Origin: an uncultured Verrucomicrobiae bacterium
GTDB lineage: Bacteria; Verrucomicrobiota; Verrucomicrobiia; Chthoniobacterales; Chthoniobacteraceae
Reading direction: 5' to 3'
Length of the DNA: 64,000 nucleotides
Assembly: GCA_963769025.1 (NCBI GenBank)
Contig: CAVYKI010000002.1
Location: forward strand, 64,001 to 128,000
This document shows, piece after piece, positions 7,989 to 40,872 of this stretch. The notes under the pieces are model-generated. The model made no database searches. It was not told the DNA's origin and saw only the letters and a program-made list of their open reading frames with translations. Numbering within the stretch: the first letter of the stretch is position 1; every line of letters begins with the position of its first letter. The translations under genes were made by a program, and so were the position numbers.

Positions 7989-8186
7989 GGCTACTGGCAG
8001 AACTCCGCCCGGCTTGAGGTCGGCTGGCGGAGATCCGATCGATGAATCCCGACTCTAGCCCATCCGACGCAGCCTGCTAGGACACGATTGCATGGACTTT
8101 GGACGATCCTGCCGCCCTTCGGGGAGCACCCGTCCGAAAGTGGTGCTGGCGTCCCACCGGTCGCCAGTTTGCCGCGGGGAGGTTTC

Positions 8187-9182: not shown

Positions 9183-9306
9183 GCGGCAGCGACTCTAGGC
9201 ATTGCAGGCCGATCACGGCGAGCCGGTTCGCATAGGCGGGCGCATGCAGGGCTGGCGAGGCTCCATCTCGCGGGGTGATAAGACAGGTTTGAGCGCGATG
9301 GGATGC

Positions 9307-10965
9307 TCACGGCTTGCTGAGCGAGTGCAGGTATTCCTCGAGGTTCGTGTAGCCGTCGCCGTCACGGTCCTTGTTGCCGTCCGCCGCATCCTGCGGGTTG
9401 AGACCATGGGTGGTCTCCCACTCGTCGGGGATCCCGTCGTTGTCGGAGTCCTTCGGATGCGCTCCTCCGGCAAGTTTCGGATGACCGCCGACATCGCGCG
9501 GCGAATCGATGATGCGGCCTTTGCCGGTCCGGACGTCGCTGACGATCCGCGCATCCACCGCATCGCGGCGCGGGAGTGTCGCGCCCACACCGGCGAGCAT
9601 GGGCTCGAGATTTTCCGCCGCGGGCGTCCGTGTCACCGGCGCGGTCGGAAATGGCGCGGCGGCCTGCTGCGTCTTGGGAGCGGGTTTGCTGTCGTAGCCC
9701 ATGCCGACGATGTCCCACTCGTCCCCGTCCGCGGCCGTGCGGTGCGGAGTGATGTTGTCCGCGACGAAGAGCTTCTTCGAGCCCGCCTGCGCTACCTGGC
9801 CGAGGATGATTTCGCGTGATTGCGATTCGGTCGAAGGCCCGCGCAGGTAGCGGTTGCCGGCGAAATTCACGTGGGTTTCGAAGCCGTGCCGGTCCTGAAT
9901 CTCGACGGGAATCTTGCCCCAGTTGTAAACGACGTTGTTGATGAAATCGTGCGTACCTCCGCCGGAGATGAGCGGGTTCCGGAAATCGTGATGCGCGAGC
10001 AGGCAATGATGCACCGTCACGCGGTTGCTGCCGTCGCCGATGAGCAGCCCCGCGCTGTGCGTCTTCTTCGGATGCCGCGCGCGGTTGAGCGCCTCGCTGA
10101 TGATGCACCACGAGAGCGTGATGTCGCGCGGCGCATACCACGTCTGCACCGTCTCGTCCTCGCTCCAACTGAACGAGCAATGGTCCGCGACCACATTGTA
10201 AACCTCATCGCGCCCGCTGCCGGTGTTGAGGATGCCGAGCGCGTCGTTGTTTTCGGGATCGCCCTTGCCCTCGTCACCGGGCCGGATGCGGACGTGCTGG
10301 AGCAGGACATCGTGCGTCATCACCGCGAGTCCGGCATTCCTGATCGAGATGCCGTCGCCGGGCGCGGTCTGCCCTGCGACGGTGACGAAGGGATGCTGGA
10401 TGTACAGCTGATCCTTCAATTCAATGACGCCGCCGACGCGGAAAAGAATCGTTCGGGGAAACGGCTGGTTCAACGCCTCACGAAGCGTCCCCGGCCCGTC
10501 ATCTTCCAGCGAAGTGACGAACAGCACCTTGCCACCCCGCCCCGCAGCGGTGCGCGTGCCAAATCCCTCCGCACCGGGAAATACCGGACGCCCTCCGTCC
10601 GGCGGGAGCGGTCGCGGCCCCGCCGACTTGATGGCGGCCCGCTCGGATGCCTTCATCGCCATCGGGATGGCAATGACTCCCACGAACGCCACCACCATGA
10701 GTCCGCCACCGACGACCGCAATCCACGCGAGCCGCGTCCCCGCACCCGAGCGGAGCCGGCGAAGGCCGAGGACGAGCGCGAGCAGCGGCGCCACCAGCAT
10801 GACGACGTAGGTAGCCGGTCCGAGCACCTTCATGATTCCGTGAAAAAGGCGGCTGAACTTGAGCAGGTAGAGCGCGGCAAGAATCCAGAAGACCAAGGAA
10901 AGCCCCAGGGAAATCCCGAGCACCGTTGGGCGTTTGGCTGGCGCGGGGAGATGTGAATGGGGCAT
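9307..10965 (-). CDS. Pectate lyase-like (PL1-type) protein with N-terminal membrane anchor
   Basis: FPGAEGFG...GRGG.V..VTSL.D.GPGTLR, TVAGQTAPGDGI, DHCSFSWSEDE; C-terminal DSDNDGIPDEWE and DRDGDGYTNLEEYL; three hydrophobic N-terminal segments. Confidence 0.85.
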   Translation of the reverse strand: MPHSHLPAPAKRPTVLGISLGLSLVFWILAALYLLKFSRLFHGIMKVLGPATYVVMLVAPLLALVLGLRRLRSGAGTRLAWIAVVGGGLMVVAFVGVIAIPMAMKASERAAIKSAGPRPLPPDGGRPVFPGAEGFGTRTAAGRGGKVLFVTSLEDDGPGTLREALNQPFPRTILFRVGGVIELKDQLYIQHPFVTVAGQTAPGDGISIRNAGLAVMTHDVLLQHVRIRPGDEGKGDPENNDALGILNTGSGRDEVYNVVADHCSFSWSEDETVQTWYAPRDITLSWCIISEALNRARHPKKTHSAGLLIGDGSNRVTVHHCLLAHHDFRNPLISGGGTHDFINNVVYNWGKIPVEIQDRHGFETHVNFAGNRYLRGPSTESQSREIILGQVAQAGSKKLFVADNITPHRTAADGDEWDIVGMGYDSKPAPKTQQAAAPFPTAPVTRTPAAENLEPMLAGVGATLPRRDAVDARIVSDVRTGKGRIIDSPRDVGGHPKLAGGAHPKDSDNDGIPDEWETTHGLNPQDAADGNKDRDGDGYTNLEEYLHSLSKP

Positions 10966-11189
10966 CGGGTAGAGGGGAAACCGTCTGTGTGTGGAGACGT
11001 TTGGTCGCTGCCTCGGGTTTCATCGATTTCGGAATGCGCGCCTACGAATCAAACCCATGCGCAAGATCATCCCGATCGGAGTGGCATTCAGTCGAATCGG
11101 CCAAAGTTGTAACCGCAACCCCGGGGGCGGCGTCTCGCACCGTGCACAGGAAAGGCTCCAAACCCTCCCGACCCGTTGCCGCAGCTCCC

Positions 11190-25536: not shown

Positions 25537-25633
25537 GGAGAGTGAAGGGTGCCTGGTGGCCCTCGCGGTCTTCAAAACCGTTGTCGGTCCGTTCTGCGGG
25601 CCGAGGTGGGTTCGATTCCTACCCTCTCCGCCA
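25537..25633 (+). tRNA. selC: tRNA-Sec (anticodon UCA)
   Basis: 97 nt. Anticodon loop CU-UCA-AA (UCA at 25572..25574), UGGU D loop, 8-bp variable arm, GUUCGAUUC T loop, G discriminator and encoded CCA. Directly upstream of selA. Confidence 0.95.
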
Positions 25634-25645
25634 CTCGCCACGCGC

Positions 25646-27001
25646 ATGAGCGGAAACACAAAGCTCCGCGCCATCCCGTCGATCGAGAAGCTCGTGCAGG
25701 CGCTCGGCCCGCTCGATGTACCGCGGCCTCTGGCAGTCGCTGCCGCGCGGAGGGAAGTCGCGGCACTGCGCAAGGAAAAGGAGGTGCCGGATTTTGCAGA
25801 CGTGGTGCAGCGGCTGGCGGCGGCTGTGGAAAGTCTGCGCCGGTCGCGGATCCAGCCGGTGATCAATGGCACGGGCATCCTCCTTCACACGAATTTCGGC
25901 CGCGCGCCGCTCGGCCCGGCGGTGGTCGCGGCAATCTCGGCGGTCGCGGCTGACTACAACAATCTCGAATACGACACCGCCACGGGCGCGCGCGGCGATC
26001 GCGCGGCGTACCTGGAGCAATGCCTCGCGGCGCTCTGCGGCGCGGAGGCGGCGACAGTGGTAAACAACTGCGCGGCGGCGCTGGTGCTGGCGCTGCGGCA
26101 TTTCACGAAGAAGAAGCCCGAGGTGATCATCTCGCGCGGTGAATTGATCCAGATCGGCGGCGGCTTCCGCATCCCGGAAATCCTCGAGGCGAGCGGTGCG
26201 CGCTTGCGCGAGATTGGCACGACGAACAAAACGACGCTGGCGGACTACCAAAAGGCGATCGGCCCGGAGACCGGGATGATTTTGAAAGTCCACCGGAGCA
26301 ATTTTTTCATGGGCGGATTCGTAGAGGCGCCCGATTCCGACGGGATTGCCGCGCTGGCGAAGAAGCGGCGTGTTCCTTTCGTCGAGGATCTCGGCAGCGG
26401 CGCGATTGCCGCGACGGAGAAGCTGGCACCAATCGCGCACGAGGCGACCCCCTTGGAAGTGCTCAGGCACGGCGCGGATCTGGTGATGTTCAGCGGCGAC
26501 AAGCTGCTCGGCGGGCCGCAGGCGGGCATCCTTGCCGGTCGCGCGCGACATATCGCGGCGCTGAAACGCGAGCCATTCTATCGCGCGCTGCGCTGCGACA
26601 AGCTCATCCTCACGGCGCTGCAAACGACCGCGGAACTGTATCTCACCGGCGCTCACGACGCGATGCCGATGCTCGCGATGCTGCGCGTTTCCAATGACGA
26701 CCTTCGCGCGCGTGGCGAAAGACTCGTCGCGGCACTCGCAGGCCTGCCGCTCTCGGCGCGCGTCGGCGAAGGCATGGCGCAGGTCGGTGGCGGCACCCTG
26801 CCGCAGGCGGAGATTCCGTCCGTCACGCTCGATCTCGCACCTGCGAAGATGCCGCTCGATGAATTTGCCGCGCGCCTCCGCGCAGGCGCGCCGCCGGTCA
26901 TAGGCTACATCTCGGGACGGCGGCTGAAGCTCGACCTGCGCACGATTTTCCCGCGGCACGATCCGACGCTCGTCGAGGCCATCCGCAAGGCATCCGCGTG
27001 A
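25646..27001 (+). CDS. selA: L-seryl-tRNA(Sec) selenium transferase
   Basis: VINGTGILLHTNFGRAPL, VVNNCAAA, SRGELIQIGGGFRIP, ILKVHRSNF, FSGDKLLGGPQAG (PLP lysine). ATG at 25646 lies just after the tRNA. Confidence 0.96.
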   Translation: MSGNTKLRAIPSIEKLVQALGPLDVPRPLAVAAARREVAALRKEKEVPDFADVVQRLAAAVESLRRSRIQPVINGTGILLHTNFGRAPLGPAVVAAISAVAADYNNLEYDTATGARGDRAAYLEQCLAALCGAEAATVVNNCAAALVLALRHFTKKKPEVIISRGELIQIGGGFRIPEILEASGARLREIGTTNKTTLADYQKAIGPETGMILKVHRSNFFMGGFVEAPDSDGIAALAKKRRVPFVEDLGSGAIAATEKLAPIAHEATPLEVLRHGADLVMFSGDKLLGGPQAGILAGRARHIAALKREPFYRALRCDKLILTALQTTAELYLTGAHDAMPMLAMLRVSNDDLRARGERLVAALAGLPLSARVGEGMAQVGGGTLPQAEIPSVTLDLAPAKMPLDEFAARLRAGAPPVIGYISGRRLKLDLRTIFPRHDPTLVEAIRKASA

Positions 27002-28923
27002 TGGAGGTGCGGCACTTCATCGTCGCCACCGCGGGTCACGTCGATCACGGCAAGAGCGCGCTGGTCACGGCGCTCACCGGGGTGGATCCGGACCGGTTGC
27101 CGGAGGAAAAGGCGCGCGGCATCACGATCGAACTCGGCTTCGGACATCTTCGGCTTGGCGACTTCGAGATCGGGATTATTGACGTGCCGGGGCACGAGGA
27201 TTTCGTGAAGAACATGGTCGCGGGCATGGGCGCGGTGGATGCCGCTCTTTTTGTCGTGGCGGCTGACGATGGGTGGATGCCGCAGACGGAGGAACATCTG
27301 CACATCCTCGGCTACCAGGGCGTGCGGCACGCGGTCGTCGCGCTGACGAAGATCGATCTTTGCGCGGATGAGAAGACGGCCATCGCCGCCATCCGGGAAA
27401 GGCTGCGCGGCACGCCCTTCTCCACCGCGCCGATCGTGCCGACCTCCATCGTCACGGGGCGGGGGATTGACGAGTTAAAGGGCGCACTCGCGAACGTGCT
27501 TTCACACACGCCTCCGTCGCGCGACATCGGCAAGCCGCGCCTTTCCGTGGACCGGGCGTTCACGTTGCGCGGGATCGGCACCGTGGTGACGGGCACGCTG
27601 AGCGGCGGCGAACTGAAACGCGGACAGGCCGTCGTCATCCAGCCTGTGGGCCTGAAGGCGCGCATCCGCGGAATCCAGAGCCACAGCCGCGAAGTCGAGA
27701 CCGCCGGGCCGGGGACGCGCACTGCGCTCAACCTTTCCGACATCGCGCTCGCCGCGCATGGCCAGCAGGGCGTCGAGCGGGGCAATGTGATTACGCTCGA
27801 AGCGCTCGGTGCGCCGGTCGCGCGGATGGATGCGGTCCTCTCGCGTTCTGCTCGCTGCGAGACCGGCAAGGGCAAGCCTGCGCTGAAAAATGGCGCTCGC
27901 GTCCGCGTCCATCACGGGAGCGGCAATGTGGCGGCACGCGTCGCGTTGTTCCGCGTGCCGGCCGTGGCGCCGGGCGGGAATGTGCTTGCGCGGCTGAAGC
28001 TCGAGCAGCCGTGGTTTGTGTGCGAGGGCGATCGTTTCATCCTGCGCGACTGGTCGGAGACCGTGACGCTCGCGGGGGGGATCGTTCTGGAGACTGCTGC
28101 GCCGGTCCGCTTCCACGCGCCGCCGCACCAGCGATTGCTGGCGCAGCGCGCGGCGGCGCCGGCGGATGTGGAGGTGTTTGTCGCCACGCAGGTCGAGCGG
28201 GATGGAATGGTGCGTGCCGCTTCGCTCCTTGCGGACTCGATCTTCAGCGCGCGTGAAATCGCCGCCGCCGCGGCACGCCTCGTGGAAGGCGGGCGGGCGA
28301 TCCAAGCCGGGGAATTCATCGCGTACGGGGATTGGTGGAAGGCCGTGGTCAAGCGCGCCGCGGACGCGATCGACGCCTGCCATGCTGAGCATCCTGAGCA
28401 CGCGGGGCTGCCGGTGAACGAACTCCGCACATTGCTCAAACGCGAACTTCCGGAGTCCGGCACGTTCGATGCCTTCGTGCGCGATCTCTGCCGCGCCGGC
28501 TTTTCGCAGAGCGGCCCCACGATTGCCCGCGCGTCGCACCGCGCGTCGCTCCCGCCGCATCTCGAGTCGGCAGGCGCGCGCATCCGTGCCGCGCTCGCCG
28601 TCAAGCCATTCGACCCGCCGCCGCGCCGCGAACTGGCCACGGATTCGCTGTCGCAGCAGGCGTTCCGTTTTCTGCTGGAGAAAGGCGAGGTCATCGAGTT
28701 GCCCGGCGAGGTCATTCTCACGAGCGCGGGTTTTGCGCGGATCAAGGAAGTGATCGCACAGTTCATCCGGAAGAACGGCCCCGCGACGGTGAGCCAGTTG
28801 CGCCAGGAACTCGGGACCACGCGCCGCGTGATGATGCCCGTGCTCGAGCGTCTCGACCGTGAGGGTTTCACCGTGCGAGCAGGCGACCTGCGATCGCTGA
28901 AGGCTGCGAAACCGACGGCATAG
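26998..28923 (+). CDS. selB: Selenocysteine-specific elongation factor
   Basis: TAGHVDHGKS, DRLPEEKARGITIELGF, DVPGHEDF, VDRAFTLRGIGTVVTGT; C-terminal winged helix LGTTRR...LERLD.EG.T.R.GDLR. Start GTG 26998 or ATG 27001, overlapping the selA stop. Confidence 0.96.
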   Translation: MMEVRHFIVATAGHVDHGKSALVTALTGVDPDRLPEEKARGITIELGFGHLRLGDFEIGIIDVPGHEDFVKNMVAGMGAVDAALFVVAADDGWMPQTEEHLHILGYQGVRHAVVALTKIDLCADEKTAIAAIRERLRGTPFSTAPIVPTSIVTGRGIDELKGALANVLSHTPPSRDIGKPRLSVDRAFTLRGIGTVVTGTLSGGELKRGQAVVIQPVGLKARIRGIQSHSREVETAGPGTRTALNLSDIALAAHGQQGVERGNVITLEALGAPVARMDAVLSRSARCETGKGKPALKNGARVRVHHGSGNVAARVALFRVPAVAPGGNVLARLKLEQPWFVCEGDRFILRDWSETVTLAGGIVLETAAPVRFHAPPHQRLLAQRAAAPADVEVFVATQVERDGMVRAASLLADSIFSAREIAAAAARLVEGGRAIQAGEFIAYGDWWKAVVKRAADAIDACHAEHPEHAGLPVNELRTLLKRELPESGTFDAFVRDLCRAGFSQSGPTIARASHRASLPPHLESAGARIRAALAVKPFDPPPRRELATDSLSQQAFRFLLEKGEVIELPGEVILTSAGFARIKEVIAQFIRKNGPATVSQLRQELGTTRRVMMPVLERLDREGFTVRAGDLRSLKAAKPTA

Positions 28924-28975
28924 TCGCGCCGTTCGCCGCCTTGACGGCAGCCGGCTTCTGGCGTTGCCTTGACTC

Positions 28976-29632
28976 ATGAAAGCGTTCCTCCCTCTCGCTC
29001 TCGCCGCGGTTTTTGTCGCCGCTGCTTTTCCCGCTTCTGCGCAGCAACGGCCGAGGAAGGGCGACCTTCGCATGCCGGACACCGTGCGCGTGGGCGACGC
29101 GGCACCGGACTTCAAACTGAAAACACTCGATGGTTCGCGTGAAGTGCAGCTCTCCAGCTTCCGCGGCAAGCGGCCGGTGGTCCTTGTCTTCGGGAGTTAC
29201 ACCTGACCCCCTTTCCGGAGTCAGGTTGGCTCCATCGAGCAGCTCTACGCGGACTACAAGGACAAGGCCGAGTTCTTCATGGTCTATATCAAGGAGGCTC
29301 ATCCCACCGACGGCAGAGTGTCGCCAGGCAATGCGCGCGGCGGGATCTCCATTCCCGATCCGAAGACGTATGCCGAGCGGGCCGATGTCGCGCACAAGGC
29401 ATGCACGGAACTGAAAATCACCCTCCCGTGTCTCGTGGACGGGATGAACGATGCCGCGAACAAGGCCTACGCCGCGTGGCCGGATCGGATCTACGTCGTG
29501 GATGCCACCGGGAAGATCGCGGTGAGAGGCGGGCCGGGGCCGTCCGGTTTTGCGCCTTCGATCACCGAGACGCGGGTGTGGCTCGGCAAGATGTTTGGGC
29601 CGAAAGGCGCGGCGTCTCCCGGTTCCCGCTGA
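28976..29632 (+). CDS. Secreted iodothyronine deiodinase-like (thioredoxin/peroxiredoxin fold) selenoprotein, 218 aa; Sec UGA at 29204..29206
   Basis: ORFs 28976..29206 and 29279..29632 are in one frame: VGDAAPDFKL...RPVVLVFGSYT-U-PPFRSQ...VYIKEAHPTDG...VDGMNDAANKAYAAWPDRIYVV...GGPGPSGF, matching deiodinase motifs. Confidence 0.93.
29217..29233 (+). promoter_or_regulatory. Candidate bacterial SECIS
   Basis: GGAGUCA-GGU-UGGCUCC, 7-bp stem starting 10 nt after the UGA. The apical CAGGU resembles the E. coli fdhF SECIS tip. Confidence 0.8.
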
Positions 29633-29649
29633 CGCACTTTCCGCGGCGG

Positions 29650-30714
29650 TCAGTCTTTGCCGGAATAGCGGACCGAGATCACCGAGGGGCCGCTGCGGAC
29701 GATCTTGCCGATAACCGCAGCGCAGGGAGTGAGATGTTTTTTCAAGAGCGCCAGCACGGCGGAGAAATTCTTCTGCGCGACGCAGAGAAGGAGGCCGCCG
29801 CTGGTCTGCGCATCGGTAAGCAGCGAACGGAAACGCTCCGGCGTGCGATCCCAATCGGTGATCGCGTTGGCCGTTTCTTCATTCTGCCTGCTGCCGCCGG
29901 GCACGCATCCTTCGGCGATGAGCGAAAAGATTTCCGCGCTGATCGCCGGGACGGATTCGGCGGTGATCTCCGCACTCACGCCGCTCGCGCGACACATCGA
30001 GGCGAGATGCCCGAGCAGGCCGAAGCCCGTCACATCCACCGCCGCGCGGACGAGTTCCTTTTCCGCAAGCACCGCGCCGCTGGAATTGAGCTGCGACATC
30101 AGCGTGATCACCTTTTTGCCCAGCGCTGCGGAAGCGATCTGCCGTTTGATTCCCGTCGTGGCGATGCCGGTGCCGAGCGGCTTTGTGAGCACGAGCAGAT
30201 CGCCTATGCGGGCGCGGGCATTTGTCAGCATCCGCCTGGGCGAAACGAGCCCGGTGACTGCGAGGCCATAGATCGGCTCGGGATTCCGGATCGTGTGGCC
30301 GCCGACGATCGTGCAGCCCGCCTCGCGTGCCTTCATTGCGCCTCCGCGCAGGATGGCGGCGATGGCATTCGGCGGGACGAGATCCGGCGGGATGCCCATG
30401 ATGTTCAGCGCGGTCAGCGGACGCCCGCCCATCGCATACACATCGGAGAGCGCATTGGCCGCCGCGATTTGCCCGTACTGCCGCGGGTCGTCCACGACGG
30501 GCGTAAAGAAGTCCACCGTCTGCACCAGCGCGATGTCGCGGGTGAGACGCCAGACGCCTGCATCATCGGCCGTGGAGGAGCCGACGAGCAGCCTGGGATC
30601 GTCGATGCGTGGAAGCTGGCGCAAGACTTGCGCCAGGGCCTGTTGGCTCAGCTTGGAAGCTCAACCGGCACAGGACGACAACTCGGTCAGACGGAGAATT
30701 GGTTTGCGGGACAA
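29650..30714 (-). CDS. selD: Selenide, water dikinase (selenophosphate synthetase), Sec-containing; UGA at 30661..30663
   Basis: TTG at 30714: MSRKPILRLTELSSCAG-U-ASKLSQQALAQVLRQLP, in frame with ORF 29650..30624 (DDAGV, QTVDFFTPVVDDP, AANALSDVYAMGG, DVTGFGLLGH, DAQTSGGLL). Confidence 0.95.
30632..30647 (-). promoter_or_regulatory. Candidate SECIS of selD (weaker)
   Basis: GCCAA-CAG-GCC-CUG-GC bulged hairpin starting 13 nt after the UGA. Confidence 0.45.
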
Positions 30715-30716
30715 AT

Positions 30717-30731
30717 GGATCACCTCCTTTC
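30717..30731 (-). promoter_or_regulatory. Extended Shine-Dalgarno of selD
   Basis: Minus strand GAAAGGAGGTGATCC just before the TTG start; complementary to the canonical 16S rRNA 3' tail GGAUCACCUCCUUUC. Confidence 0.8.
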
Positions 30732-30830
30732 GATTTCCAAAAGACCGCTGGTCCGCCGAAAGCCAAGGAGAAACCTCGGCCCGGAGAATTCCCGTTTGAC
30801 GGCCCCGTGGGACGAATCGACCGTGGAGCC

Positions 30831-32000
30831 ATGAAAGCAGCCATCGCCCTCACGTTGTTCGCCGCTCTCGCATGGACGCACGCCAACGGCGCGACGCTGA
30901 ACGAGGAATTGTCCGGTTTTTCCAAGCGCTTCGAAGCCGCCCAGCCGTCCGAAAGCCAGCAGGCGATCTGGAAGCTCGACTGGGAGGATCACCTTTCCAC
31001 CGCCCTCGCGCGCGCGAAAACCGAGCGCCGGCCGATCCTTTTCATCCACGTCACCAACATCTCCGGCCCGTCCTACTTCGGTGCCGGGCATTGTTGAGCA
31101 AATGCCGACCACGTGAGAGGCAGTTGCCTCTCCCACAGTGACGCGATCGAGGCACTCAGAGGATTCATTGTCACGTCTTGGAGCGGTCACACCGACATGC
31201 GCGATCCGAAGGACATGCCGCCTGAAGTTGCGCGTGTGCATGCCACGGCCGCGGGCACGCGTGTGAAAGGCAACATCAAGTGCTTCATCCTCGCACCCGA
31301 CGGCGAGGTCGAGGCGGTGTTCAATGCGTTCCCAAACAACGATGTCACCTCCTTCGGCTTCGACGCGGACGAAGCCGGTCGCTACTTTGCGAAGAGCATC
31401 CGGCATTTCTCGAGCGGACTGAAAATCCCCGATCCCGCGAAGAAGGATTCGCGACTTGCGCTGCCGAAGACCCTCCAGGACGGCACGCCGGCAGACGCGC
31501 GGCTCGTGCTTCATGTTTCGCCAAAATCGCAGCCGTCCCAATACCGCGCCGCCGTGGCCGAACCGTTGCGGCTCGGAATCGAGGCCCGTTCCGCGCTGAG
31601 TGGAGGGGGGAAGCCGGTGAAGGAATCGGGCACGGTCGCGGCCAGTTCGCTCGCGACCGTGCTGAAGCTTTTCTACCCGCCGGCGATCATGCAGGAGACC
31701 GGCGAGATCAGCGCGGTCGCAGGGACGCTCAATCTGAGTCCCATCGGCGCCAACAGCGACGGCGCTTGGGCAAAACTCACCGGTTCCGCGACGCTCACGC
31801 TGGACGATGGTGCGGACACGAAGTTCCCCGTGGAAGTGGACGCGCTGGTGCTCACGGATCCGGCCAGCGGCGCGTTCAAATCCGTGCGCGGCATTCTCAA
31901 TGGCGTTTGTCCGAAAGTGGCTGGCAAAAGCGGACCCGGACGGACGCATCAACTGGAAATGACCGGCACTTTCACGAGCCTCGACGCGGATTCGAAGTGA
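30831..32000 (+). CDS. Predicted secreted selenoprotein, thioredoxin fold with vicinal Cys-Sec (SelN-like), 389 aa; Sec UGA at 31095..31097
   Basis: Signal peptide MKAAIALTLFAALAWTHANGA, then LDWEDHLSTALARAKTERRPILF...GAGHC-TGA-ANADHVRGSCLSHSDAIEALRGFIVTSWS, in frame with ORF 31113..32000. Divergent from selD. Confidence 0.85.
31113..31136 (+). promoter_or_regulatory. Candidate bacterial SECIS
   Basis: Perfect inverted repeat GAGAGGC-AGUU-GCCUCUC (31115..31132), extendable with GUG/CAC, starting 15-17 nt after the UGA. Confidence 0.78.
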
Positions 32001-32408: not shown

Positions 32409-33332
32409 ATGAACTCCACAGACGGCATCCTCTTCAGTCTGATCGTTCCGACGCTGAACAGGCACGACGACGTGGAGCGGTTGCTGGTGTCGATTGCCGG
32501 GCAGTCGTGCCGGGATTTCGAGGTCATCATCGTCGATCAAAACGCGGACGATCGCCTCGGCGACCTATGCCGCGAGTTTGCGCGCCGCATGCCGCTGCTG
32601 CACCTGAAGGTGGAGTCGAAGGGGGCAGCGCGCGCGCGCAACCACGGGCTTGGATTTGCAAAAGGTGGCATCATCAATTTTCCGGATGACGATTGCCAGC
32701 TCACGCCGGGATTGCTGGAAACCGTGGCCGCGCTCCTGAAGCAGAATCCTGACTGGGATGCGGTTTTCGGCCGCGCGATCGATCCGGTTTCAAAGGAAAG
32801 CTCAGTCACCAAGTTTGACTCGCGGGCGCAGTGGGTGACGCCAGGAAACGTCTATCAGACCACCGTGGAATTCACGATGTTCGCCAGACGATCGCTTTTC
32901 GACGAAGTCGGCCTGCTGGACGAAAATCTCGGCGTCGGGACGTTTTTTGGTGCGGAAGAGGGCGCGGATTTTGTGTTGCGCGCGCTCTACAGGAAGAAGC
33001 GACTTTTCTACGACCCCTCGTTGCTGTTCTACCACGTGGAAAAAGTGGTCCGGTACGACGAGAAGGATCACGTGCGGGCGTACGAATATGGAAAGGGTTT
33101 CGGCCGCCTGTCGGTGAAGCATGCCCGGCTTTACCGGCAGCCGAGGGCTGCGCTGCGGTTCCTGTATCGGCTGGTGCGGGCCGCGATGGCGGTGGCGCTT
33201 TACCTCTGTCTGCTGAAGCCGAACCAGAGCAAATACTATCGCGAACTCATCCGCGGAAGGATGGTGGGAGTCTTCCGCTCCTGGAGCGAATTTGGGCGAA
33301 ACGGCGCGGCCACGCTGCAGAAGAAATGCTGA
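32409..33332 (+). CDS. Glycosyltransferase family 2
   Basis: FSLIVPTLNR, FEVIIVDQN, GAARARNHGL, FPDDDC. Confidence 0.92.
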   Translation: MNSTDGILFSLIVPTLNRHDDVERLLVSIAGQSCRDFEVIIVDQNADDRLGDLCREFARRMPLLHLKVESKGAARARNHGLGFAKGGIINFPDDDCQLTPGLLETVAALLKQNPDWDAVFGRAIDPVSKESSVTKFDSRAQWVTPGNVYQTTVEFTMFARRSLFDEVGLLDENLGVGTFFGAEEGADFVLRALYRKKRLFYDPSLLFYHVEKVVRYDEKDHVRAYEYGKGFGRLSVKHARLYRQPRAALRFLYRLVRAAMAVALYLCLLKPNQSKYYRELIRGRMVGVFRSWSEFGRNGAATLQKKC

Positions 33333-33399
33333 ACGATCGCTGCCGGGAGGTTTGCGCGCGCCGGCCTTGCAACTTCAAAGCGAATAGACTTATGACTCC

Positions 33400-34593
33400 G
33401 TGAGCGCCAGTCCCCCGATGAGAATCACCCTGAACGGCTACTACGGCTTCGCCAATTACGGCGACGAGTTGTTCAATTTGACGACGGTCCTCGCCGCGCA
33501 GCGCTGGTGGGGAGGGCATCACGTGGACATCCTCGGTCCGCCGGTCCCGGGCATCGCGGCGGAATACCGGGTGCCGGCGTGGTTTCCCACGGCCCTCTAC
33601 ACTGGGCCGGGAGCGGTCGGGAAGGCGATCCGGCTGGCATTCTGTGCGGATGCGATGCTGCGGCGCGACTTACTCCTGTACGCAGGCGGTTCCACACTTT
33701 CATACGGCAGTATCCTCAAAAAAATCCAGAGGATCGCCGCGGAACGGAACTGCATCAAATTTGCCGGCATCGGCGTTTCCATAGGCCCGTTTGCAGATGC
33801 AGCGGACGAAGCGGAGGCCGCGCGTTTCCTTCGCAAGTTCACCTGCATTTCCGTGCGCGACAGACGCTCGATGGACCATCTCCGGAAAATGGACATCCCG
33901 GTGAAGGCGTTGCTGGCGCGGGATCTCGTGGGTGCCCTGCCGCTCTTGCTGCCAGAGGGCGAAACCATGCAATCCGCCGGTGCAGGGAGCGCGCGCAAAC
34001 CGCTGGGGATTTCACTCCGCGACTACGAGTGGCCCGATGCCGGAGACACGGCAGCCGCAGCTCGGAAGGAGGCGTTGTTCAAAGGCGTGGAGCGATTCGT
34101 AAAGCGCGAGCGGGTGCCGGTCCGCATTTTCTGCCTGAACACCCACCCGCGTTCGGGGGATCAGGCGATGTCATCCCAGCTTGCGGAGCGCCTGACCCGG
34201 CAGGGCGCGGAGGTCGAGGTGATCAGCGCAAAGGACAACCTCCTCGGTTGCTGGCACGGGCTGGCATCTTGCTCCGCGGTATTCACCGTCCGTCTTCACG
34301 GTGCCATCACCGCGTACCTATGCGGTGTACCACTGGTCCAGATCGAGTATCACGACAAGTGCACCGATCTGATGGATGACATCGGCCAGCACGCATCCTT
34401 GCGCATCGGCGGAGGCCATACCGATCCCGCGGCGATCGAGCAGGTCCTCGACCGGCTGTACCGTAACCCGCCGCCGCCGGCCTTGCCGCGAGAGACTTAC
34501 ATGGCCGAGGCCGCGTTGAACTTCACGCAGGTGCCATGGGCCACCGACCACGGAACGAAGGCGGCGGAGCATCCGGCGCAGCCCGCCCGGTGA
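33400..34593 (+). CDS. Polysaccharide pyruvyl transferase family protein
   Basis: GYYGFANYGDE, GVSIGPF, ISVRDRRS, VRLHGAI. Alternative ATG at 33418. Confidence 0.88.
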   Translation: MSASPPMRITLNGYYGFANYGDELFNLTTVLAAQRWWGGHHVDILGPPVPGIAAEYRVPAWFPTALYTGPGAVGKAIRLAFCADAMLRRDLLLYAGGSTLSYGSILKKIQRIAAERNCIKFAGIGVSIGPFADAADEAEAARFLRKFTCISVRDRRSMDHLRKMDIPVKALLARDLVGALPLLLPEGETMQSAGAGSARKPLGISLRDYEWPDAGDTAAAARKEALFKGVERFVKRERVPVRIFCLNTHPRSGDQAMSSQLAERLTRQGAEVEVISAKDNLLGCWHGLASCSAVFTVRLHGAITAYLCGVPLVQIEYHDKCTDLMDDIGQHASLRIGGGHTDPAAIEQVLDRLYRNPPPPALPRETYMAEAALNFTQVPWATDHGTKAAEHPAQPAR

Positions 34594-34748
34594 AACGGAC
34601 AATTTCGACAATGTGGTTTGCTGCACTCACCACCCCGCAGACCGCATCGGAATATTTCTGATCGCGGCGATTTCCACACCGAACCGATCGTGTCGCAAAA
34701 ACTGAGTTTGAAGCCGGGAAACAAGGACGATGGAGGGATGTTAAACGG

Positions 34749-35873
34749 ATGAAACCAAATCTCGCCGAAGCAAGGGTAGCGTGGATCACCAGGCGCGAAG
34801 TGCTGGATGCCGATGCGCTCCCTGCCAATCATGCATGGGGAACTGACGCCATTTTCTCGGCGGGAGCCAGGCGAGTGCAGCCGACGCGAATCCGGTGGAT
34901 TGACGCGGTAGGAGCAAGGTTGCGCCTGGGGCCCAACCTCTCGGAACAGCTATGGCTCTTCTTTAACCAGAGAAAGTACGACTTCGTCATCGCCAAAGAC
35001 ACCGACCTGGTCTGCGTCCTCTGCGTCCTCCTCTGGTTGTTCCGGCAGAGCAAGGGGATATTCGCATTCCTCCACTTTCCGCTCCGGGTCTTCATCAAGG
35101 ATTTTTTTCTGACGAAGCGTTGCAGCGTTCTCATGGCGCTCAGTGAAGAAATACACCGGCTTTCGCTCATCAGCTACCCCCGGGCAGCCCAACTTCTCAA
35201 AACCTTCGAATGGGCCGTCGATATTGAATTCTATGACCGGATTCGCGCGGAACTGGATGCCGGTGGGCAGATCGAATCCGCAGGTGCTCCGGTGCCTGAC
35301 GGCAAACTCCGCATTCTCCTCGTTGGGATCACCGGCAGGAAGTTCGCCTCATTCCTGGAGGCGACCGTTGCAGATCGGGATGTCGAAGTCCGGGTCGTGA
35401 CCGATTCACCCGATGTGCTGCTTCAGATCCAGAGCCTCCCAAACTACACCCCGGTGCGGACGGAGCCGGATAAACCGGTAACCTATCGCCAACTTGTCGC
35501 GCAGTATCTCGCATGCGATGTCGTCGCCATTCCGCTGGAGATCAAGGATGCTCCCGACGACGAACTTATCAGGCACCGGGCGACGCTTTGGGGAATCACC
35601 ACCCTACTCGAAGCATCGGCCCTCGCGAGACCGGTCGTGATGACCTTTAATCCGGTTCTAGGCTTCGACGTTGGCAGCCTGGAATGTGGCCTATGCCTCC
35701 GTGAGGACGACGCCCTCCATTGGAAAAAAGCGATCCAGTGGTGTCGCGGGCACAAGGCGTCGCTCAAGGCCATGGGTGAGCAGGCCAGGCGTAACGTCGA
35801 CGAGTACTACAATTTGCGTTGCTTCCGGGAGCGGCTGAAGACGACAATTGAAACTTACTATGCCAGTCAGTGA
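34749..35873 (+). CDS. Glycosyltransferase, GT4-like (GT-B)
   Basis: C-terminal CDVVAIPL...GITTLLEASALARPVV...MGEQARRNV pattern. Confidence 0.75.
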   Translation: MKPNLAEARVAWITRREVLDADALPANHAWGTDAIFSAGARRVQPTRIRWIDAVGARLRLGPNLSEQLWLFFNQRKYDFVIAKDTDLVCVLCVLLWLFRQSKGIFAFLHFPLRVFIKDFFLTKRCSVLMALSEEIHRLSLISYPRAAQLLKTFEWAVDIEFYDRIRAELDAGGQIESAGAPVPDGKLRILLVGITGRKFASFLEATVADRDVEVRVVTDSPDVLLQIQSLPNYTPVRTEPDKPVTYRQLVAQYLACDVVAIPLEIKDAPDDELIRHRATLWGITTLLEASALARPVVMTFNPVLGFDVGSLECGLCLREDDALHWKKAIQWCRGHKASLKAMGEQARRNVDEYYNLRCFRERLKTTIETYYASQ

Positions 35874-35960
35874 CGCAACCTGGAATGGCCGGAACGAACC
35901 TCGCATCCACGCCAAGTTGGCCAGTCCGAAGGCTGCCGATGCGTTTGGATAAGGAGAAAC

Positions 35961-37322
35961 ATGCAGTTGCTTTTGCTTAGTTTGTTCTTTCTGGCGACTG
36001 TTACGTCCTCGTGGGACTTAATCGGAGTGCTCGACGTTGCCGGAGGAAATCTGCGCATTTGTTCCTTCTTCATGGTGAGTTTCATCGCGGCATCCATGAT
36101 TTGCTTCAAGCCGAGTCGCGTACCCCGCGTCCGCGGATTTGTTCTTCTGCTGATTTGGTTTGGGTTCAACTTGGTTGGCGCCACGAATGCGCCTCAAGTT
36201 TTTCGAACGTATGCGTATCTCGTCTGGCTGACTCTTGACGTCGCCCTGGTCTTTGCGTGTGCAGCGGCCTTCAGGACTCCGCGAGACCTAGCCACCCTTG
36301 CGCGTTGGAACTACTACAGCTTCATCCCAATCTCGTTGTTTGGGTTGATCCAGTTTGCTGCCTATCCGCTTGGCATCAATTTGCTGGTAAAACAAACTTG
36401 GGTCTCGGTTCTGGCGCGGATTAACGGATTCTCCTACGAGCCTTCCTACTACTCGACATACATGATTGTCGGTTGGGCCATGTCCTTTGTGCTCCTCGTG
36501 CGGGGTGTACATTTTGTCCGTCCGGCGTTGAGTTGGGCTGTCTTTGGAATGCATACGGCCGTTCTTGTCCTTTGCAGCTCGCGGATTGGCTACCTCGGCA
36601 TGGGAGTAATGGGCTTGGTCATGGCCCCGACAATCCTGAAATCCTTCCGAACCTCCCGGACGAGCAGGATTTTGACATCTGTAGCGGCTCTTGGCGCGGT
36701 GGTTTTGATTGGCGGCGGGGCGGTTCTCCTCATGAGTGTCAAAGATACGCCACTTCTGCTCGAGGGGACCGGCTTGGGTGGGACAGCGGCACACTCCGTG
36801 GATCAGCGTATGGCTGGAGTCGAACTATACGAGGAATTGTTCATGGCCAACCCGTTGAAAGGCTACAGTGTGGGCGGCATCGCGGCGCAAATCGCGGGGG
36901 CGGACGGGTCCATGTCCATCGATTACGAGGCCATGCGACAAAGCCAGGGGTGCAACGTTTCGCTCGAAATCCTGCTGGCTACGGGCATCGTTGGGGCGCC
37001 GTTTTTTTTCTGGTACTTTTTCAAGCTCACCTTTGCCTCGCTCAGTCGAATCCGCACCGTTGCCGATGCGCGCATGCGTGCAATATGTGCCGCCAATATC
37101 TGGGGCCTTATCATGCAGTTTTTCCTGCTGCAATTTAACCAAAATATCTTGCGTAACTATTTTTGGATCCAAATCGCGGTGGTGTCTTGTCTTGTGACTC
37201 ACGCCTTGCGCCAAAGGCGTGGAGAGCATGCACTCCCGGTCCATCATTCGCGGTCATTCCAGGCGGAGCGCGAGCACGCACCGCTTCCGGAGGCGGCCAA
37301 TCTTTCCATTCCGCGAGCATGA
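35961..37322 (+). CDS. O-antigen polymerase/ligase (Wzy-like) membrane protein
   Basis: About 11-12 hydrophobic segments; RINGFSYEPSY, SSRIG, LEILLATGIVG; located in the polysaccharide locus. Confidence 0.78.
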   Translation: MQLLLLSLFFLATVTSSWDLIGVLDVAGGNLRICSFFMVSFIAASMICFKPSRVPRVRGFVLLLIWFGFNLVGATNAPQVFRTYAYLVWLTLDVALVFACAAAFRTPRDLATLARWNYYSFIPISLFGLIQFAAYPLGINLLVKQTWVSVLARINGFSYEPSYYSTYMIVGWAMSFVLLVRGVHFVRPALSWAVFGMHTAVLVLCSSRIGYLGMGVMGLVMAPTILKSFRTSRTSRILTSVAALGAVVLIGGGAVLLMSVKDTPLLLEGTGLGGTAAHSVDQRMAGVELYEELFMANPLKGYSVGGIAAQIAGADGSMSIDYEAMRQSQGCNVSLEILLATGIVGAPFFFWYFFKLTFASLSRIRTVADARMRAICAANIWGLIMQFFLLQFNQNILRNYFWIQIAVVSCLVTHALRQRRGEHALPVHHSRSFQAEREHAPLPEAANLSIPRA

Positions 37323-38404
37323 AGATTTTGTTTGATGCCCGTTGCCTCATGCAGCCTACGACCGGCATCCAGGTCGTCGCTCGCAATCTGCTCGCCGAGT
37401 TGTCGCGCTCGGACATGGTTGACGAACTTGTTGTCCTCGCAGGGCCGGAAGTCGACATCGGCGACGGAGCGTCGGATTGCGAGTGCGTTCGCACAGGGAT
37501 CGGCCCATATGATTTTTTCCGGCAGCGAGAGGTGGCGCGGTTGATCAATCAGACGGAGGCGGATATCCTGCTCTCGCCAACCTATTTCATTCCGTATGGC
37601 GTGAAGAAGCCTTACATCATGATGGTCCATGATTTGATCCCCCGGAAGATATGGCTCGGGCGGCAGTCAATTTATTACCGCTGCCTGCTTGGGGAACGCA
37701 TGCGTTCTGCGCTTGGGATATGGACGGTTTCGAATTACTCGCGCCGGGAAATCCTCTCCACCAATGCGAATTTGGATGCGCGGGTCCAGGTATTGCCGTC
37801 TGGTTATACGAGCGCTCCAGGCAGTGCGGCGCCTTTGTGCAAGCGGCGCGAGCTTCTGGTCTTCGCGAGCCGGTTTCGCCACAAGAACATCTCGTTTGCC
37901 ATCCGCGCGTTCGAAGCCCTGCAGGCGATTTCAGGCAAGGCTTGGAAGCTGCATGTGGTCGGCAACCTTTCGCACATGCAGGACGCTGCGTTTCCGGAAG
38001 GCGTTTCCCTTCGGGGCCGTGTGACGGACAGCGAACTCACCGAGCTTTACCGGCAGTGCTGGGGTGTGTTGCTTCCGTCTATGGAGGAAGGGTTCAGCCT
38101 GCCGTTGATCGAGGGCATGAGCCATGGCTGCGTAGTCTTTTACCATCGTCATACGGCGATGAGCGAAACTGCCGGCGAGGCGGGGGTCGGGCTTGATTTG
38201 GGGCGACCCGAAGAATGGGCGCAAGCGATCATCGCAACTGCGGCGGGTGACGGCGAGGCGGAGGCGCACCGGGATCGGGCACGGAAGCGCGCTGCGGAAT
38301 TTTCAAGGGAGCGCTTTGTCTCCGCATTTCACGGGGCGCTCAGCCGGACTTTGGAGGGTTTGCCGTTCGGAACCGGAGCAACGCGGAAACATCATTCAAA
38401 ATGA
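37319..38404 (+). CDS. Glycosyltransferase family 4
   Basis: ATG 37319 overlaps the upstream TGA; MKILFDAR, MVHDLIP, HKN, LPSMEEGFSLPLIEGM. Confidence 0.88.
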   Translation: MKILFDARCLMQPTTGIQVVARNLLAELSRSDMVDELVVLAGPEVDIGDGASDCECVRTGIGPYDFFRQREVARLINQTEADILLSPTYFIPYGVKKPYIMMVHDLIPRKIWLGRQSIYYRCLLGERMRSALGIWTVSNYSRREILSTNANLDARVQVLPSGYTSAPGSAAPLCKRRELLVFASRFRHKNISFAIRAFEALQAISGKAWKLHVVGNLSHMQDAAFPEGVSLRGRVTDSELTELYRQCWGVLLPSMEEGFSLPLIEGMSHGCVVFYHRHTAMSETAGEAGVGLDLGRPEEWAQAIIATAAGDGEAEAHRDRARKRAAEFSRERFVSAFHGALSRTLEGLPFGTGATRKHHSK

Positions 38405-39540
38405 GCAACGTCGCGCTGGCTCATCATTGGCTCATCAGCATGCGTGGAGGTGAACGCGTGCTGGAAGAGATGTGCGCGCTTTTTCCCGACGCACCCGTCC
38501 ACACTCTCGTCGCGCAGGTCGATCGGCTCAGTGCCCGGATTGCGGCGCATCGCATCGTTCCTTCGCTGCTCCAGCGGCTGCCCGGGGCGACGCGGCACTA
38601 TAAAAAACTGCTGCCGCTTTTCAAATTCGCGATCCCGCGGATGCGCGTGGCGGCGGAGACGCAGTTGGTTTTCAGCTCCGACGCGAGCATGATCAAAGGG
38701 CTGAACGTGCCGCCGGGAGTGCCCCATGTCTGCTATTGCCACTCGCCTCCGCGTTACCTCTGGGATCTGCACGAAACGTACATGAAAGGCAGTGCGGAGA
38801 TCGGCGCGTTCGGGCGTTTTGTGTTCCGGCACGTGCTGGCTTCCGCGCGCGCCTTTGACCTTGCGGGCGCGAAGAAGGTTACGCACTTCATCGCCAATTC
38901 CGCCTTCGTCCGGGAGCGCATCCGGCGGATTTACGGCCGTGAATCGGTGGTGATTCATCCGCCGGTTTCGGTGGATGATTTTTCGGCGGAGCGCCCGCGG
39001 AAGGACTTTTTCCTGCTCGTCTCCGAAATCACGCCCTACAAGCGCGTGGACCTGGCGGTCGAGGCGTTCCGGCGGAATGGCCGGCAGTTGGTGGTAATCG
39101 GAGACGGTTCCGAGATGGCCGCGTTGCGGGGGAGCGCCCCTTCCAACGTGACTTTCCTCGGGCGCCAGTCCTTCGCCGTGCTCAAGGAGCACCTGGAGAC
39201 TTGCCGGGCATTCGTCTTTCCGGGGATTGAAGATTTCGGCATTGCGCCGTGCGAAGCGCAGGCGTCTGGCGCGCCGGTGATCGCCTTTGCCGAGGGTGGC
39301 GCGCTGGAGACGGTGAAGGACGGGGTGACTGGCGTTTACTTCGCCGAGCAGACGCCGGATGCGCTCGTCGCGGCGCTGGAACGGTTTGAAGCACTCCCGC
39401 CTTTTAGCCCCGAGGTCTGCCGCGTCAATGTCGAGCGGTTTCGCCCGGAGCAGTTCCGCCGCGCCATTCGCGAATATATGGCTTCGGAATTTCCGCGGTT
39501 TTTCGCCAGCTACCCGTGGCCTGAGGAGGGGAAACCGTAG
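38401..39540 (+). CDS. Glycosyltransferase family 4 (mannosyltransferase-like)
   Basis: HHWLISMRGGERVL, YCHSPPRYLWD, YKRVDLAV, EDFGIAPCEAQASG. Confidence 0.92.
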   Translation: MSNVALAHHWLISMRGGERVLEEMCALFPDAPVHTLVAQVDRLSARIAAHRIVPSLLQRLPGATRHYKKLLPLFKFAIPRMRVAAETQLVFSSDASMIKGLNVPPGVPHVCYCHSPPRYLWDLHETYMKGSAEIGAFGRFVFRHVLASARAFDLAGAKKVTHFIANSAFVRERIRRIYGRESVVIHPPVSVDDFSAERPRKDFFLLVSEITPYKRVDLAVEAFRRNGRQLVVIGDGSEMAALRGSAPSNVTFLGRQSFAVLKEHLETCRAFVFPGIEDFGIAPCEAQASGAPVIAFAEGGALETVKDGVTGVYFAEQTPDALVAALERFEALPPFSPEVCRVNVERFRPEQFRRAIREYMASEFPRFFASYPWPEEGKP

Positions 39541-39576
39541 CGCCAGAGCGGGGAGCATTCCGCGGCGGGGGCGGGC

Positions 39577-40872
39577 TTAGGAGGCGGCAGGTTGTGCGAG
39601 GGGGAGTTTCTGGAAGGGATTGAGCCGCATTTTCCAGAGGGTAATAAATACGGCGATGGTGATGGCAATCTCCGTCGCGAGAAGTGCGATTGCTGCGCCG
39701 AGTTCCATGAGCCATGGGGTCAGCGCGAGGACGAGGATCACATCGAGTGCGGCTCCGGCCCCGACGATCCGGTTGTAGGAACGCTCGTGGCCGAGCGGGA
39801 ACATCCACCGGATTCCAAGCACGCCATTGAGCGCGGAGAACGGGCACACCAGCCCCAGCACGCGCAGGACCGGGATGGCACGCTCATAGCCGGGGCCGAA
39901 CAAAAGGTGGACCAGCCATGGCGCTCCGAGTGTGAGCGTCAGCCCGAGGAGCAGGCCTATTGCGCCGAGCGCGAGCGTGCCGCGCCGGACGGTGTTGCGC
40001 GCCTGATGGATGTCGTGTTTCACCAAGTGTGCGAGGTGCGGGTAGAGGACTTGGTTGATCGGGCCGGTAAAGGTGAGGAAACCGCGCATCAGCCGTTCGG
40101 GTCCGCCGTAGAAACTGACGACGGCCGGGGTGATCAGGATGCCGAGCATGAAGCCATTGGCCTTTGCATAGAGGGTGATGACTGCGACGAAGAGGAAGAA
40201 GTGCCATGCATCCCGCATCGTCCGTGCTGCGCGGGCGAGACTGCACATGGCAAAGCGGACGGTACGGTACATGAGGCGGAATCCTATTCCAAGCGACAGC
40301 GTGAAGCTGATGGCCTGGTAGAATATCACCTTGGTCGCATCCTCGGGGGCCTTGATCAGGAAAAAGACGCTGATGGTGAAGAGCAGCCGGCACGCGACTT
40401 CAACGGACGCGGCGAGGCGCATGCGCTGGATGCCTTGAAAGTACCACATGGGACTGAACCCCTGTGCGATGGCGATCCACATTGCACCGATAAGGATGAG
40501 GGGATTCTCCCGAAATGTCGGAACTCCCAGCCAGAACACGATGCCGGTCGCCAAGCCGAGGATGCTGAGGCCGACCTTGCAGGCCATTACGTCACTTACG
40601 ATTTTGCGCAGCTTTTCCGGATTGCCGGAATGGCGGGCGACCTCACGCGTGGCAGAATAGACAAATCCAAATTCCACGAGGATCGTGGGCCAGACCGCGA
40701 CGGCCTGGGCGAAGAGGACCATTCCCCACGCGTCGGGCCCGAGTACGCGCGCGAGGTACGGCACGGTGACCAGAGGGAGGAGCGAATTGGCAATCGTGAC
40801 TGCGTAAAGTGCGAAGGCATTTTGCGCGAGACTCCCGCGGCAGAGGGTGGAGATTTTTTGGAAAAGCGTCAC
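39577..40872 (-). CDS. wzx: Wzx-type polysaccharide flippase
   Basis: NSLLPLVTVPYLARVLGP, EFGF..SATREVA, WYFQGIQRM; about 12 TM segments. Confidence 0.88.
   Translation of the reverse strand: MTLFQKISTLCRGSLAQNAFALYAVTIANSLLPLVTVPYLARVLGPDAWGMVLFAQAVAVWPTILVEFGFVYSATREVARHSGNPEKLRKIVSDVMACKVGLSILGLATGIVFWLGVPTFRENPLILIGAMWIAIAQGFSPMWYFQGIQRMRLAASVEVACRLLFTISVFFLIKAPEDATKVIFYQAISFTLSLGIGFRLMYRTVRFAMCSLARAARTMRDAWHFFLFVAVITLYAKANGFMLGILITPAVVSFYGGPERLMRGFLTFTGPINQVLYPHLAHLVKHDIHQARNTVRRGTLALGAIGLLLGLTLTLGAPWLVHLLFGPGYERAIPVLRVLGLVCPFSALNGVLGIRWMFPLGHERSYNRIVGAGAALDVILVLALTPWLMELGAAIALLATEIAITIAVFITLWKMRLNPFQKLPLAQPAAS

Follow-up and report, generated by a model that had tools for sequence, protein, structure and literature searches.

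The window considered here is a stretch of 64,000 nucleotides from the genome of an uncultured Verrucomicrobiae bacterium (assembly GCA_963769025.1, contig CAVYKI010000002.1), and the gene under study, located on its plus strand at 30831..32000, encodes a selenoprotein with an adjacent pair of cysteine and selenocysteine (Cys-Sec). Translation of the coding part (30831-31997) with TGA read as Sec (U) yields 389 residues, with U occurring once, at residue 89, in the context GHC-U-ANADHVRG; the Sec codon is the TGA at 31095-31097, and the frame is terminated by the TGA at 31998-32000. Under translation table 11, the frame is split into an 88-codon open reading frame (ORF) that ends in Cys and a downstream ORF with a possible restart at GTG 31113. 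An earlier interpretation made from the letters of the DNA (the sequence-only reading) had proposed at this place an exported selenoprotein resembling selenoprotein N (SelN), and the residues that it quoted, ALARAKTERRPILF and GHC-U-ANADHVRGSCLSHSDAIEALRGFIVTSWS, are each found letter for letter in the translation. The features recognized within the gene are as follows.

30831..32000, plus strand: whole selenoprotein gene, 389 codons and a TGA stop, with Sec at codon 89 (translation with TGA as U).
30831..30887, plus strand: signal-peptide-like N-terminus, approximately residues 1-19, with MK, a hydrophobic run and THA/NG (read by eye).
30951..31409, plus strand: thioredoxin-like domain, approximately residues 41-193, spanning the TGA (AlphaFold2 and Foldseek).
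31092..31097, plus strand: Cys88 (TGT) and Sec89 (TGA), the vicinal Cys-Sec centre in the family motif G-H-C-U (sequence and N-terminal alignment).
31115..31132, plus strand: hairpin resembling a selenocysteine insertion sequence (SECIS), with a 7-bp stem and an AGUU loop, beginning 17 nt downstream of the UGA (folding).
31443..31997, plus strand: C-terminal beta-rich domain, residues 205-389 (modelled separately, with a predicted local distance difference test score, pLDDT, of 91.5).

The UGA at codon 89 is read through. Three loci were compared at the DNA level (n = 3), namely the window and two relatives recovered by a scan of one genome per species, one in a Chthoniobacteraceae metagenome-assembled genome (MAG) designated L001 and one in a Verrucomicrobiota MAG designated L002. 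A TGA is present at codon 89, in the same frame, in all three loci, with nearly identical flanks in L001 and L002, and in the segment leading from the TGA to the first possible restart (codons 90-94) every changed codon is synonymous (2 of 2 relative to L001 and 3 of 3 relative to L002). Comparison of the window with the two loci gave 21 synonymous and 8 non-synonymous differences in one case and 20 and 14 in the other for codons 27-88, as well as 29 and 19, and 33 and 18, respectively, for codons 95-200, with third positions dominating in both segments. The sequence-only reading had raised the concern that the homologous halves might never occur as one protein; they share a single frame in all three loci with DNA. 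It had also predicted that standard annotation would split the gene, and the protein database indeed holds the window's own gene as two entries, P0105 (88 aa) and P0006 (267 aa).

An alternative explanation is that the TGA acts as a true stop, in which case the locus would be either a pseudogene or a pair of small genes encoding 88 aa and about 295 aa. Public gene calls do split the locus at the TGA, and the energy of the downstream hairpin taken alone is not significant. However, the in-frame TGA is common to all three loci, the five codons between it and the candidate restart have accumulated synonymous changes only, the GTG at 31113 is preceded by no Shine-Dalgarno-like sequence, a single fold, modelled with confidence, extends across the break, 81 of 81 cluster representatives are divided at the Sec site, and the window contains the complete Sec machinery. 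A true stop is therefore extremely improbable.

To collect the family, phmmer was run exhaustively against 1.84 billion cluster representatives (E <= 1e-3) and returned 81 relatives, comprising 20 N-terminal and 61 C-terminal pieces. None of the 20 N-terminal matches extends past query residue 88, and 18 of them reach the last residue of their own protein; by sequence, 19 of the 20 pieces end in Cys and 17 in GHC, and Cys is the last residue in 22 of the 23 sequences of the N-terminal alignment. The C-terminal pieces all start at residue 93 or later (61 of 61), with 35 starting at residues 93-96, typically as (M/V)RGSSLS. Matches bridging the Sec site were absent from the 81 phmmer relatives, from the 12 matches of a word-indexed search, and from the 34 matches of a profile search; within the last set, N- and C-terminal pieces showed the same longest-contig size in seven cases. 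Because no full-length Cys homolog was seen among the 81 cluster representatives, the family appears to be Sec-only. Longer or fused forms were sought among proteins of more than 681 residues and none emerged, which is weak evidence.

The conserved positions define a family signature on both sides of the Sec codon. Up to Sec it consists of LDW, RAKKExRP, a beta-strand, and TNISGP..F.SGHC-U, and past Sec it reads HVRGSSLS.P.V.E.L.PFIVT.W.G. Residues D50, W51, A58, E65, R67, P68, and G86 are invariant in the N-terminal alignment, with H87 and C88 conserved in at least 90% of the sequences; G97, L100, L109, and W117 are conserved past Sec, and LP211-212, R224, YPP282-284, M287, G298, and G318 in the C-terminal half. 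Cys99 (within RGSCLSH) was considered as a resolving cysteine and rejected, as distant relatives have Ser at this position (RGSSLS). The members that carry a taxonomic name derive from MAGs of Chthoniobacteraceae/Verrucomicrobiota and Planctomycetota.

Comparison with existing sequence collections did not place the protein. Neither a Pfam domain nor any relevant NCBIfam model was detected on the full protein at E <= 1, and a search of the Protein Data Bank (PDB) with the single sequence gave no match at E <= 10; when the family profile was used instead, the sole PDB match (E 1.7) was to an NHL repeat and was judged meaningless. A literature search on the GHCU and CU motifs found nothing on GHCU, its one relevant result being the preprint of Haft and Gwadz on CU motifs (10.1101/2022.07.06.499078). 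A 2026 inventory of prokaryotic selenoproteins lists 119 families in its Table 1 (PMC13188914), among which there is neither a GHCU family nor a SelN-like family, and Table S9 of PMC4807772, which gives selenoprotein candidates of Planctomycetes, contains nothing recognizably the same as the GHCU family. The gene is a genuine selenoprotein gene of a previously undescribed family, restricted to the Planctomycetes-Verrucomicrobia-Chlamydiae (PVC) group as far as seen.

Several members show peculiarities of their own. The N-terminal fragment P0034 (80 aa) has a TtuA LIM-like start (Pfam PF22082, 2.9e-12), probably reflecting a wrong start or a gene overlap, and the N-terminal fragment P0049 (89 aa) is named "predicted component of type VI protein secretion system" in one source, a name that finds no support here. 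The distant C-terminal fragment P0088 (311 aa) carries an OmpL47-type beta-barrel domain at residues 180-238 (NCBIfam NF047446, 8.5e-6) and matches the query over residues 95-224 only; the OmpL47-type domain apparently stands in place of, or after, the usual C-terminal domain, and P0088 may represent a domain-swapped variant of the family.

The hairpin downstream of the Sec codon is built from the strands GAGAGGC (31115-31121) and GCCUCUC (31126-31132), separated by the loop AGUU. All seven pairs are perfect and its start lies 17 nt past the UGA, in agreement with the perfect SECIS-like hairpin described earlier. It lies in a 28-nt block that shows no difference among the three loci, whereas third positions next to the block vary; the loop contains GU, and no covariation is visible. 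According to the bSECISearch criteria, a bacterial SECIS is reportedly a hairpin shortly downstream of the UGA with G or GU in its apical loop. Rfam gave no match at the hairpin even at E <= 10, and no SECIS-type family when its E-value mode was applied to 28900-31400. Taken together, these features are consistent with, and do not prove, the assignment of this candidate as a bacterial SECIS.

All four genes of the Sec machinery (tRNA-Sec, selA, selB, and selD) are located inside window positions 25537-30714, together with a gene for another putative selenoprotein.

25537-25633, plus strand: tRNA-Sec (Rfam, 63.7 bits; ARAGORN tRNA-SeC, anticodon tca).
Within 25556-27001, plus strand: selA (Pfam SelA, 1.7e-115).
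26998-28923, plus strand: selB (Pfam GTP_EFTU, Beta-barrel_SelB, and SelB-wing_3).
28976-29632, plus strand: deiodinase-like selenoprotein with U77 in FGSYT-U-PPF (Pfam T4_deiodinase, 1.7e-34; NCBIfam deiodinase_rel, 1.6e-61).
29650 to about 30714, minus strand: selD, Sec-type selenophosphate synthetase with SSCAGU-ASK (Pfam AIRS, 2.4e-28, and AIRS_C, 2.2e-21).

The position of selD on the minus strand, about 116 nt from the gene under study, agrees with the divergent orientation noted in the sequence-only reading. The arrangement of tRNA-Sec, selA, and selB at 25537-28923 (plus strand) is compact, and the real start of selA has to be sought past 25633, as the longest ORF for it (25556-27001) shares positions with the tRNA gene. 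The product of selD is a selenoprotein too: its gene contains an in-frame TGA (SSCAGU-ASKLS), followed at a distance of about 27 nt by a stable 9-bp hairpin, and likely starts at the TTG at 30714. The deiodinase-like protein, whose gene adjoins selB, has a signal-peptide-like start and is a second, probably exported selenoprotein; its deiodinase_rel match lies under the family cut-off and is confined to positions 177-337 of the 347-position profile, and the hairpin past its UGA is weak (z = 0.07).

Such an organization was not recovered around the two related loci. Within 6 kb of the homologs in L001 and L002, selD, selB, and a deiodinase-like gene were found in neither case, and the neighbours of the two loci differ from those in the window and from each other's. 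Since the neighbourhood is not conserved, function cannot be deduced from the context, and the proximity to selD is no general property of the family. In L001, the homolog is adjoined at 7111-11037 (minus strand) by a gene for a 1308-aa protein with DUF7133, HEAT-repeat, and C-terminal cupredoxin/plastocyanin domains; this cupredoxin-domain neighbour is shared by neither the window nor L002.

The GHCU protein is probably exported to the periplasm. Its N-terminus, MKAAIALTLFAALAWTHANG, appears signal-peptide-like by inspection (MK, a 13-residue hydrophobic run, and THA/NG), as had been claimed, and the N-terminal fragments of relatives, 20 in number, mostly start in a similar way.

Structure prediction with AlphaFold2 on a 91-sequence alignment, followed by Foldseek comparison with the PDB, provided a two-domain model with a mean pLDDT of 88.2 and a predicted template modelling score (pTM) of 0.87. 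The first domain, which spans the TGA, has the thioredoxin-type beta-alpha-beta-alpha-beta-beta-alpha topology, with helices (H) and strands (E) at H55-65, E69-74, H103-108, E113-118, H131-140, E149-154, E160-165, and H179-193. The Cys-Sec pair sits between strand beta-1 (69-74) and helix alpha-1 (103-108), the topological place of CxxC in thioredoxins. The best Foldseek match, a Brucella protein with a Thioredox_DsbH domain (7tkv_A, E 7.9e-4), was followed by DsbH (2ju5, 2e-3), a Xylella disulphide isomerase (3fk8), AGR2 (9i3u_B), DsbD-gamma (1vrs_D, 1uc7, and 2fwe), and ERp19 (1sen), with the UAS domain of UBXD7 (2dlx) at rank 43 (E 3.3e-2). Foldseek probabilities to DsbH, DsbD-gamma, AGR2, ERp19, and thioredoxins amount to 0.95-1.00, with E-values of 7.9e-4 to 3e-2. 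Because 7tkv_A is the sole match at E <= 1e-3, the result assigns a fold class and not a close relative. The location of Sec in a thioredoxin-like domain, as proposed earlier, is borne out by the model and the Foldseek comparison.

The C-terminal domain had been described as uncharacterized, and it proved to be beta-rich and without a solved relative. Foldseek found no PDB match for it at E <= 1e-3; the best E-value was 1.5e-2, template modelling (TM) scores did not exceed 0.32, and the best-scoring structures were PYL receptors, EspG3, PsbO, and YceI-like proteins.

With moderate confidence, the product can be regarded as an exported 389-residue selenoprotein that functions as a periplasmic oxidoreductase, in which a Cys88-Sec89 selenenylsulfide cycle would run on a mobile loop and the C-terminal domain would bind a substrate or partner. 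In this proposal, with the downstream hairpin as a guide, UGA codon 89 would be decoded as Sec through SelB and tRNA-Sec, whose genes lie a few kb upstream, and the flexible loop ending in G-H-C-U would take the place of the thioredoxin CxxC between beta-1 and alpha-1. Cys88 and Sec89 might alternate between two states, a selenolate/thiol pair and a selenenylsulfide ring of eight members, as does the GCUG end of mammalian thioredoxin reductase and as SCUG of SelN presumably does; His87 would contribute to this cycle. The protein would then act as a periplasmic thiol/selenol oxidoreductase, either a reductase or a peroxidase, with the C-terminal beta-rich domain possibly holding the substrate or partner. 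Precedents for vicinal Cys-Sec centres include SCUG of SelN and GCUG of thioredoxin reductase, both described as redox motifs (PMC12839072).

A number of observations weigh against this proposal. The codon following the terminal Cys was confirmed as TGA in three loci, the other relatives being protein pieces, and the folding energy of the hairpin is unexceptional (z = -1.93; 7 of 200 shuffles fold as well or better). In the model, pLDDT falls below 50 only at residues 80-94, which form the Sec loop, so that the geometry of this loop relative to the fold is poorly defined, and the Foldseek E-values are weak (7.9e-4 at best). No thioredoxin-family model in Pfam or NCBIfam recognizes the full protein, and no thioredoxin family was detected when the 91 alignment members were compared with Pfam at E <= 0.01. 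Thioredoxin folds usually have a cis-proline just before strand beta-3, whereas the GHCU family has Asn148 at the position before this strand (63 of 68 sequences). Finally, the conserved His87 beside C-U would suit a metal site, and CU motifs in bacterial selenoproteins have been interpreted as serving heavy-metal ligation, not redox chemistry (Haft and Gwadz, 10.1101/2022.07.06.499078).

The last two points lead to a different function, the main rival besides SelN homology, namely a periplasmic chaperone or binding protein that handles metals, metalloids, or selenium, with His87-Cys88-Sec89 as ligands for soft metals (Cu, Hg, or Ni) or as a carrier of Se/S. Sco-type copper chaperones, which have a thioredoxin fold, offer a precedent for metal handling. 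Conservation of G-H-C immediately before Sec (seen as a terminal GHC in 17 of the 20 N-terminal fragments) fits such a role, as do the location of the gene next to selD and the sel operon in the window, the cupredoxin-domain protein encoded by the next gene in L001, and the reading of the CU motifs of SaoL, SaoB, SaoC, and HgcA as heavy-metal ligands in the preprint of Haft and Gwadz. However, none of the NCBIfam models for CU-motif families matches the GHCU protein, selD, selB, and the deiodinase-like gene are missing within 6 kb in both related loci, and no metal-transport gene is adjacent to the gene in the window. A metal-handling function is accordingly considered quite unlikely.

A separate question is whether the bacterial thioredoxin-like module is a true SelN homolog, that is, a member of the same clade with the same Cys-Sec centre and different accessory domains. 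In SelN, the thioredoxin module lies near the C-terminus. The protein is described as a type II membrane glycoprotein of the endoplasmic reticulum (ER) with a luminal EF-hand and a thioredoxin-like domain whose Sec lies in SCUG, a motif likened to GCUG of thioredoxin reductase, and the substitution R466Q, four residues after Sec462, is listed as pathogenic (PMC12839072). On this description, SelN and the GHCU protein both carry a vicinal Cys-Sec pair in a thioredoxin-like domain that faces an oxidizing compartment, and the CU motif is rare in bacterial selenoproteins according to the preprint of Haft and Gwadz. The positions matched in the sequence-only reading coincide with conserved positions of the family (the RAKxE..RP helix before beta-1, and G97, L100, L109, and W117), the position of R466Q (PMC12839072) agrees with U-GSGR in the approximate human sequence of the sequence-only reading, and the UAS domain 2dlx occurs among the fold matches, at rank 43 with E 3.3e-2.

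Nevertheless, none of the 81, 12, or 34 matches bridges the Sec site or has a SelN-like length, and the phmmer, word-indexed, profile, PDB, Pfam, and NCBIfam searches as a whole returned neither a SelN-length protein nor anything SelN-like, the PDB profile search included. No SELENON structure appeared among the PDB matches of Foldseek, the top fold matches are DsbH, DsbD-gamma, and AGR2, none of which is SelN-specific, and a literature search for a bacterial SelN-like protein found no description of one. The GHCU protein has no transmembrane anchor (no further hydrophobic helix in the model) and no EF-hand (Pfam, E <= 1); its thioredoxin module is N-terminal, so that the domain order differs; its motif is flanked differently (G-H-C-U-A versus S-C-U-G of SelN); and its loop from beta-1 to CU would be longer, as judged by the approximate human sequence of the sequence-only reading. 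True homology with SelN is doubtful, though an attractive lead. Of the SelN-like exported selenoprotein that had been proposed, the read-through, the vicinal Cys-Sec pair, the probable export, the thioredoxin-like domain, and the new C-terminal domain have stood, whereas membership in the SelN clade is not supported so far, the searches having returned no Sec-bridging or SelN-length match and only generic thioredoxin folds (7.9e-4 at best), an outcome that the sequence-only reading had itself named as speaking against the kinship.

Comparison with known systems further outlines the position of the family. SelN and the GHCU protein are alike in being thioredoxin-like, extracytoplasmic Cys-Sec proteins, and their selenenylsulfide centres probably work alike. 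They differ in that SelN, a glycoprotein inserted in the membrane in type II orientation, carries an EF-hand and SCUG (PMC12839072), whereas the GHCU protein has a signal-peptide-like start and an unrelated beta-rich C-terminal domain. The group of DsbH, Thioredoxin_7, DsbD-gamma, AGR2, ERp19, and UAS proteins provides the best fold matches and shares a helix with a basic/acidic motif before beta-1 as well as an exported or luminal location; in contrast to the CxxC of the DsbH/DsbD-gamma group, however, the GHCU protein has C-U on a long loop, Asn at the presumed cis-proline site, and an extra C-terminal domain. Mammalian thioredoxin reductase, with an adjacent Cys-Sec in GCUG on a flexible segment (motif: PMC12839072), is the closest mechanistic model and not a homolog; the GHCU protein lacks a flavoprotein domain and has its Cys-Sec inside a thioredoxin fold instead of at the C-terminus.

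Among curated selenoprotein models, just one was hit by members of the family, namely that of the VPGUxxT thioredoxin-like selenoprotein type 2 (NF041383), which matched 2 of the 20 N-terminal fragments (P0091 at 7.2e-4 and P0049 at 5.2e-3) at profile positions 4-30, corresponding to the helix and beta-1 before the active site. These matches are short and far under the 275-bit cut-off, the full protein is unmatched, and the motif and length (a 287-position profile) differ. The CU-motif selenoproteins SaoL, SaoB, SaoC, HgcA, MbdU, and KCU-star resemble the GHCU protein in their rare Cys-Sec pair and in the truncation of their database entries (Haft and Gwadz; PMC13188914), but they have different folds and an anaerobe/organometallic context, and no NCBIfam model links them to the GHCU protein.

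Downstream of the gene, the window contains a polysaccharide-biosynthesis cluster (32409-40872) that is unrelated to the finding.

32409-33332: family 2 glycosyltransferase.
33400-34593: polysaccharide pyruvyl transferase.
39577-40872, minus strand: Polysacc_synt flippase.

Thioredoxin-fold selenoproteins are common in bacteria, and most bacterial selenoprotein families have Cys forms. What is unusual in the GHCU family is the vicinal Cys-Sec in place of UxxC or CxxU, the lack of a Cys homolog among 81 representatives, and a confidently modelled C-terminal domain without a solved relative; CU itself has been called rare in bacterial selenoproteins (Haft and Gwadz). Neither Pfam nor NCBIfam release 20.0 nor the prokaryotic inventory of 119 families (PMC13188914) contains the family, and all database copies seen are stored as two hypothetical proteins; recognizing it therefore corrects annotation. 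As a tentative and rather unlikely extension, PVC bacteria might possess a counterpart, possibly the evolutionary source, of the SelN redox module, with the same scaffold, Cys-Sec, and spacing to beta-2 and a different substrate-binding domain. If this link were true, the family would provide a simple soluble bacterial model for the poorly understood redox centre of a human myopathy protein.

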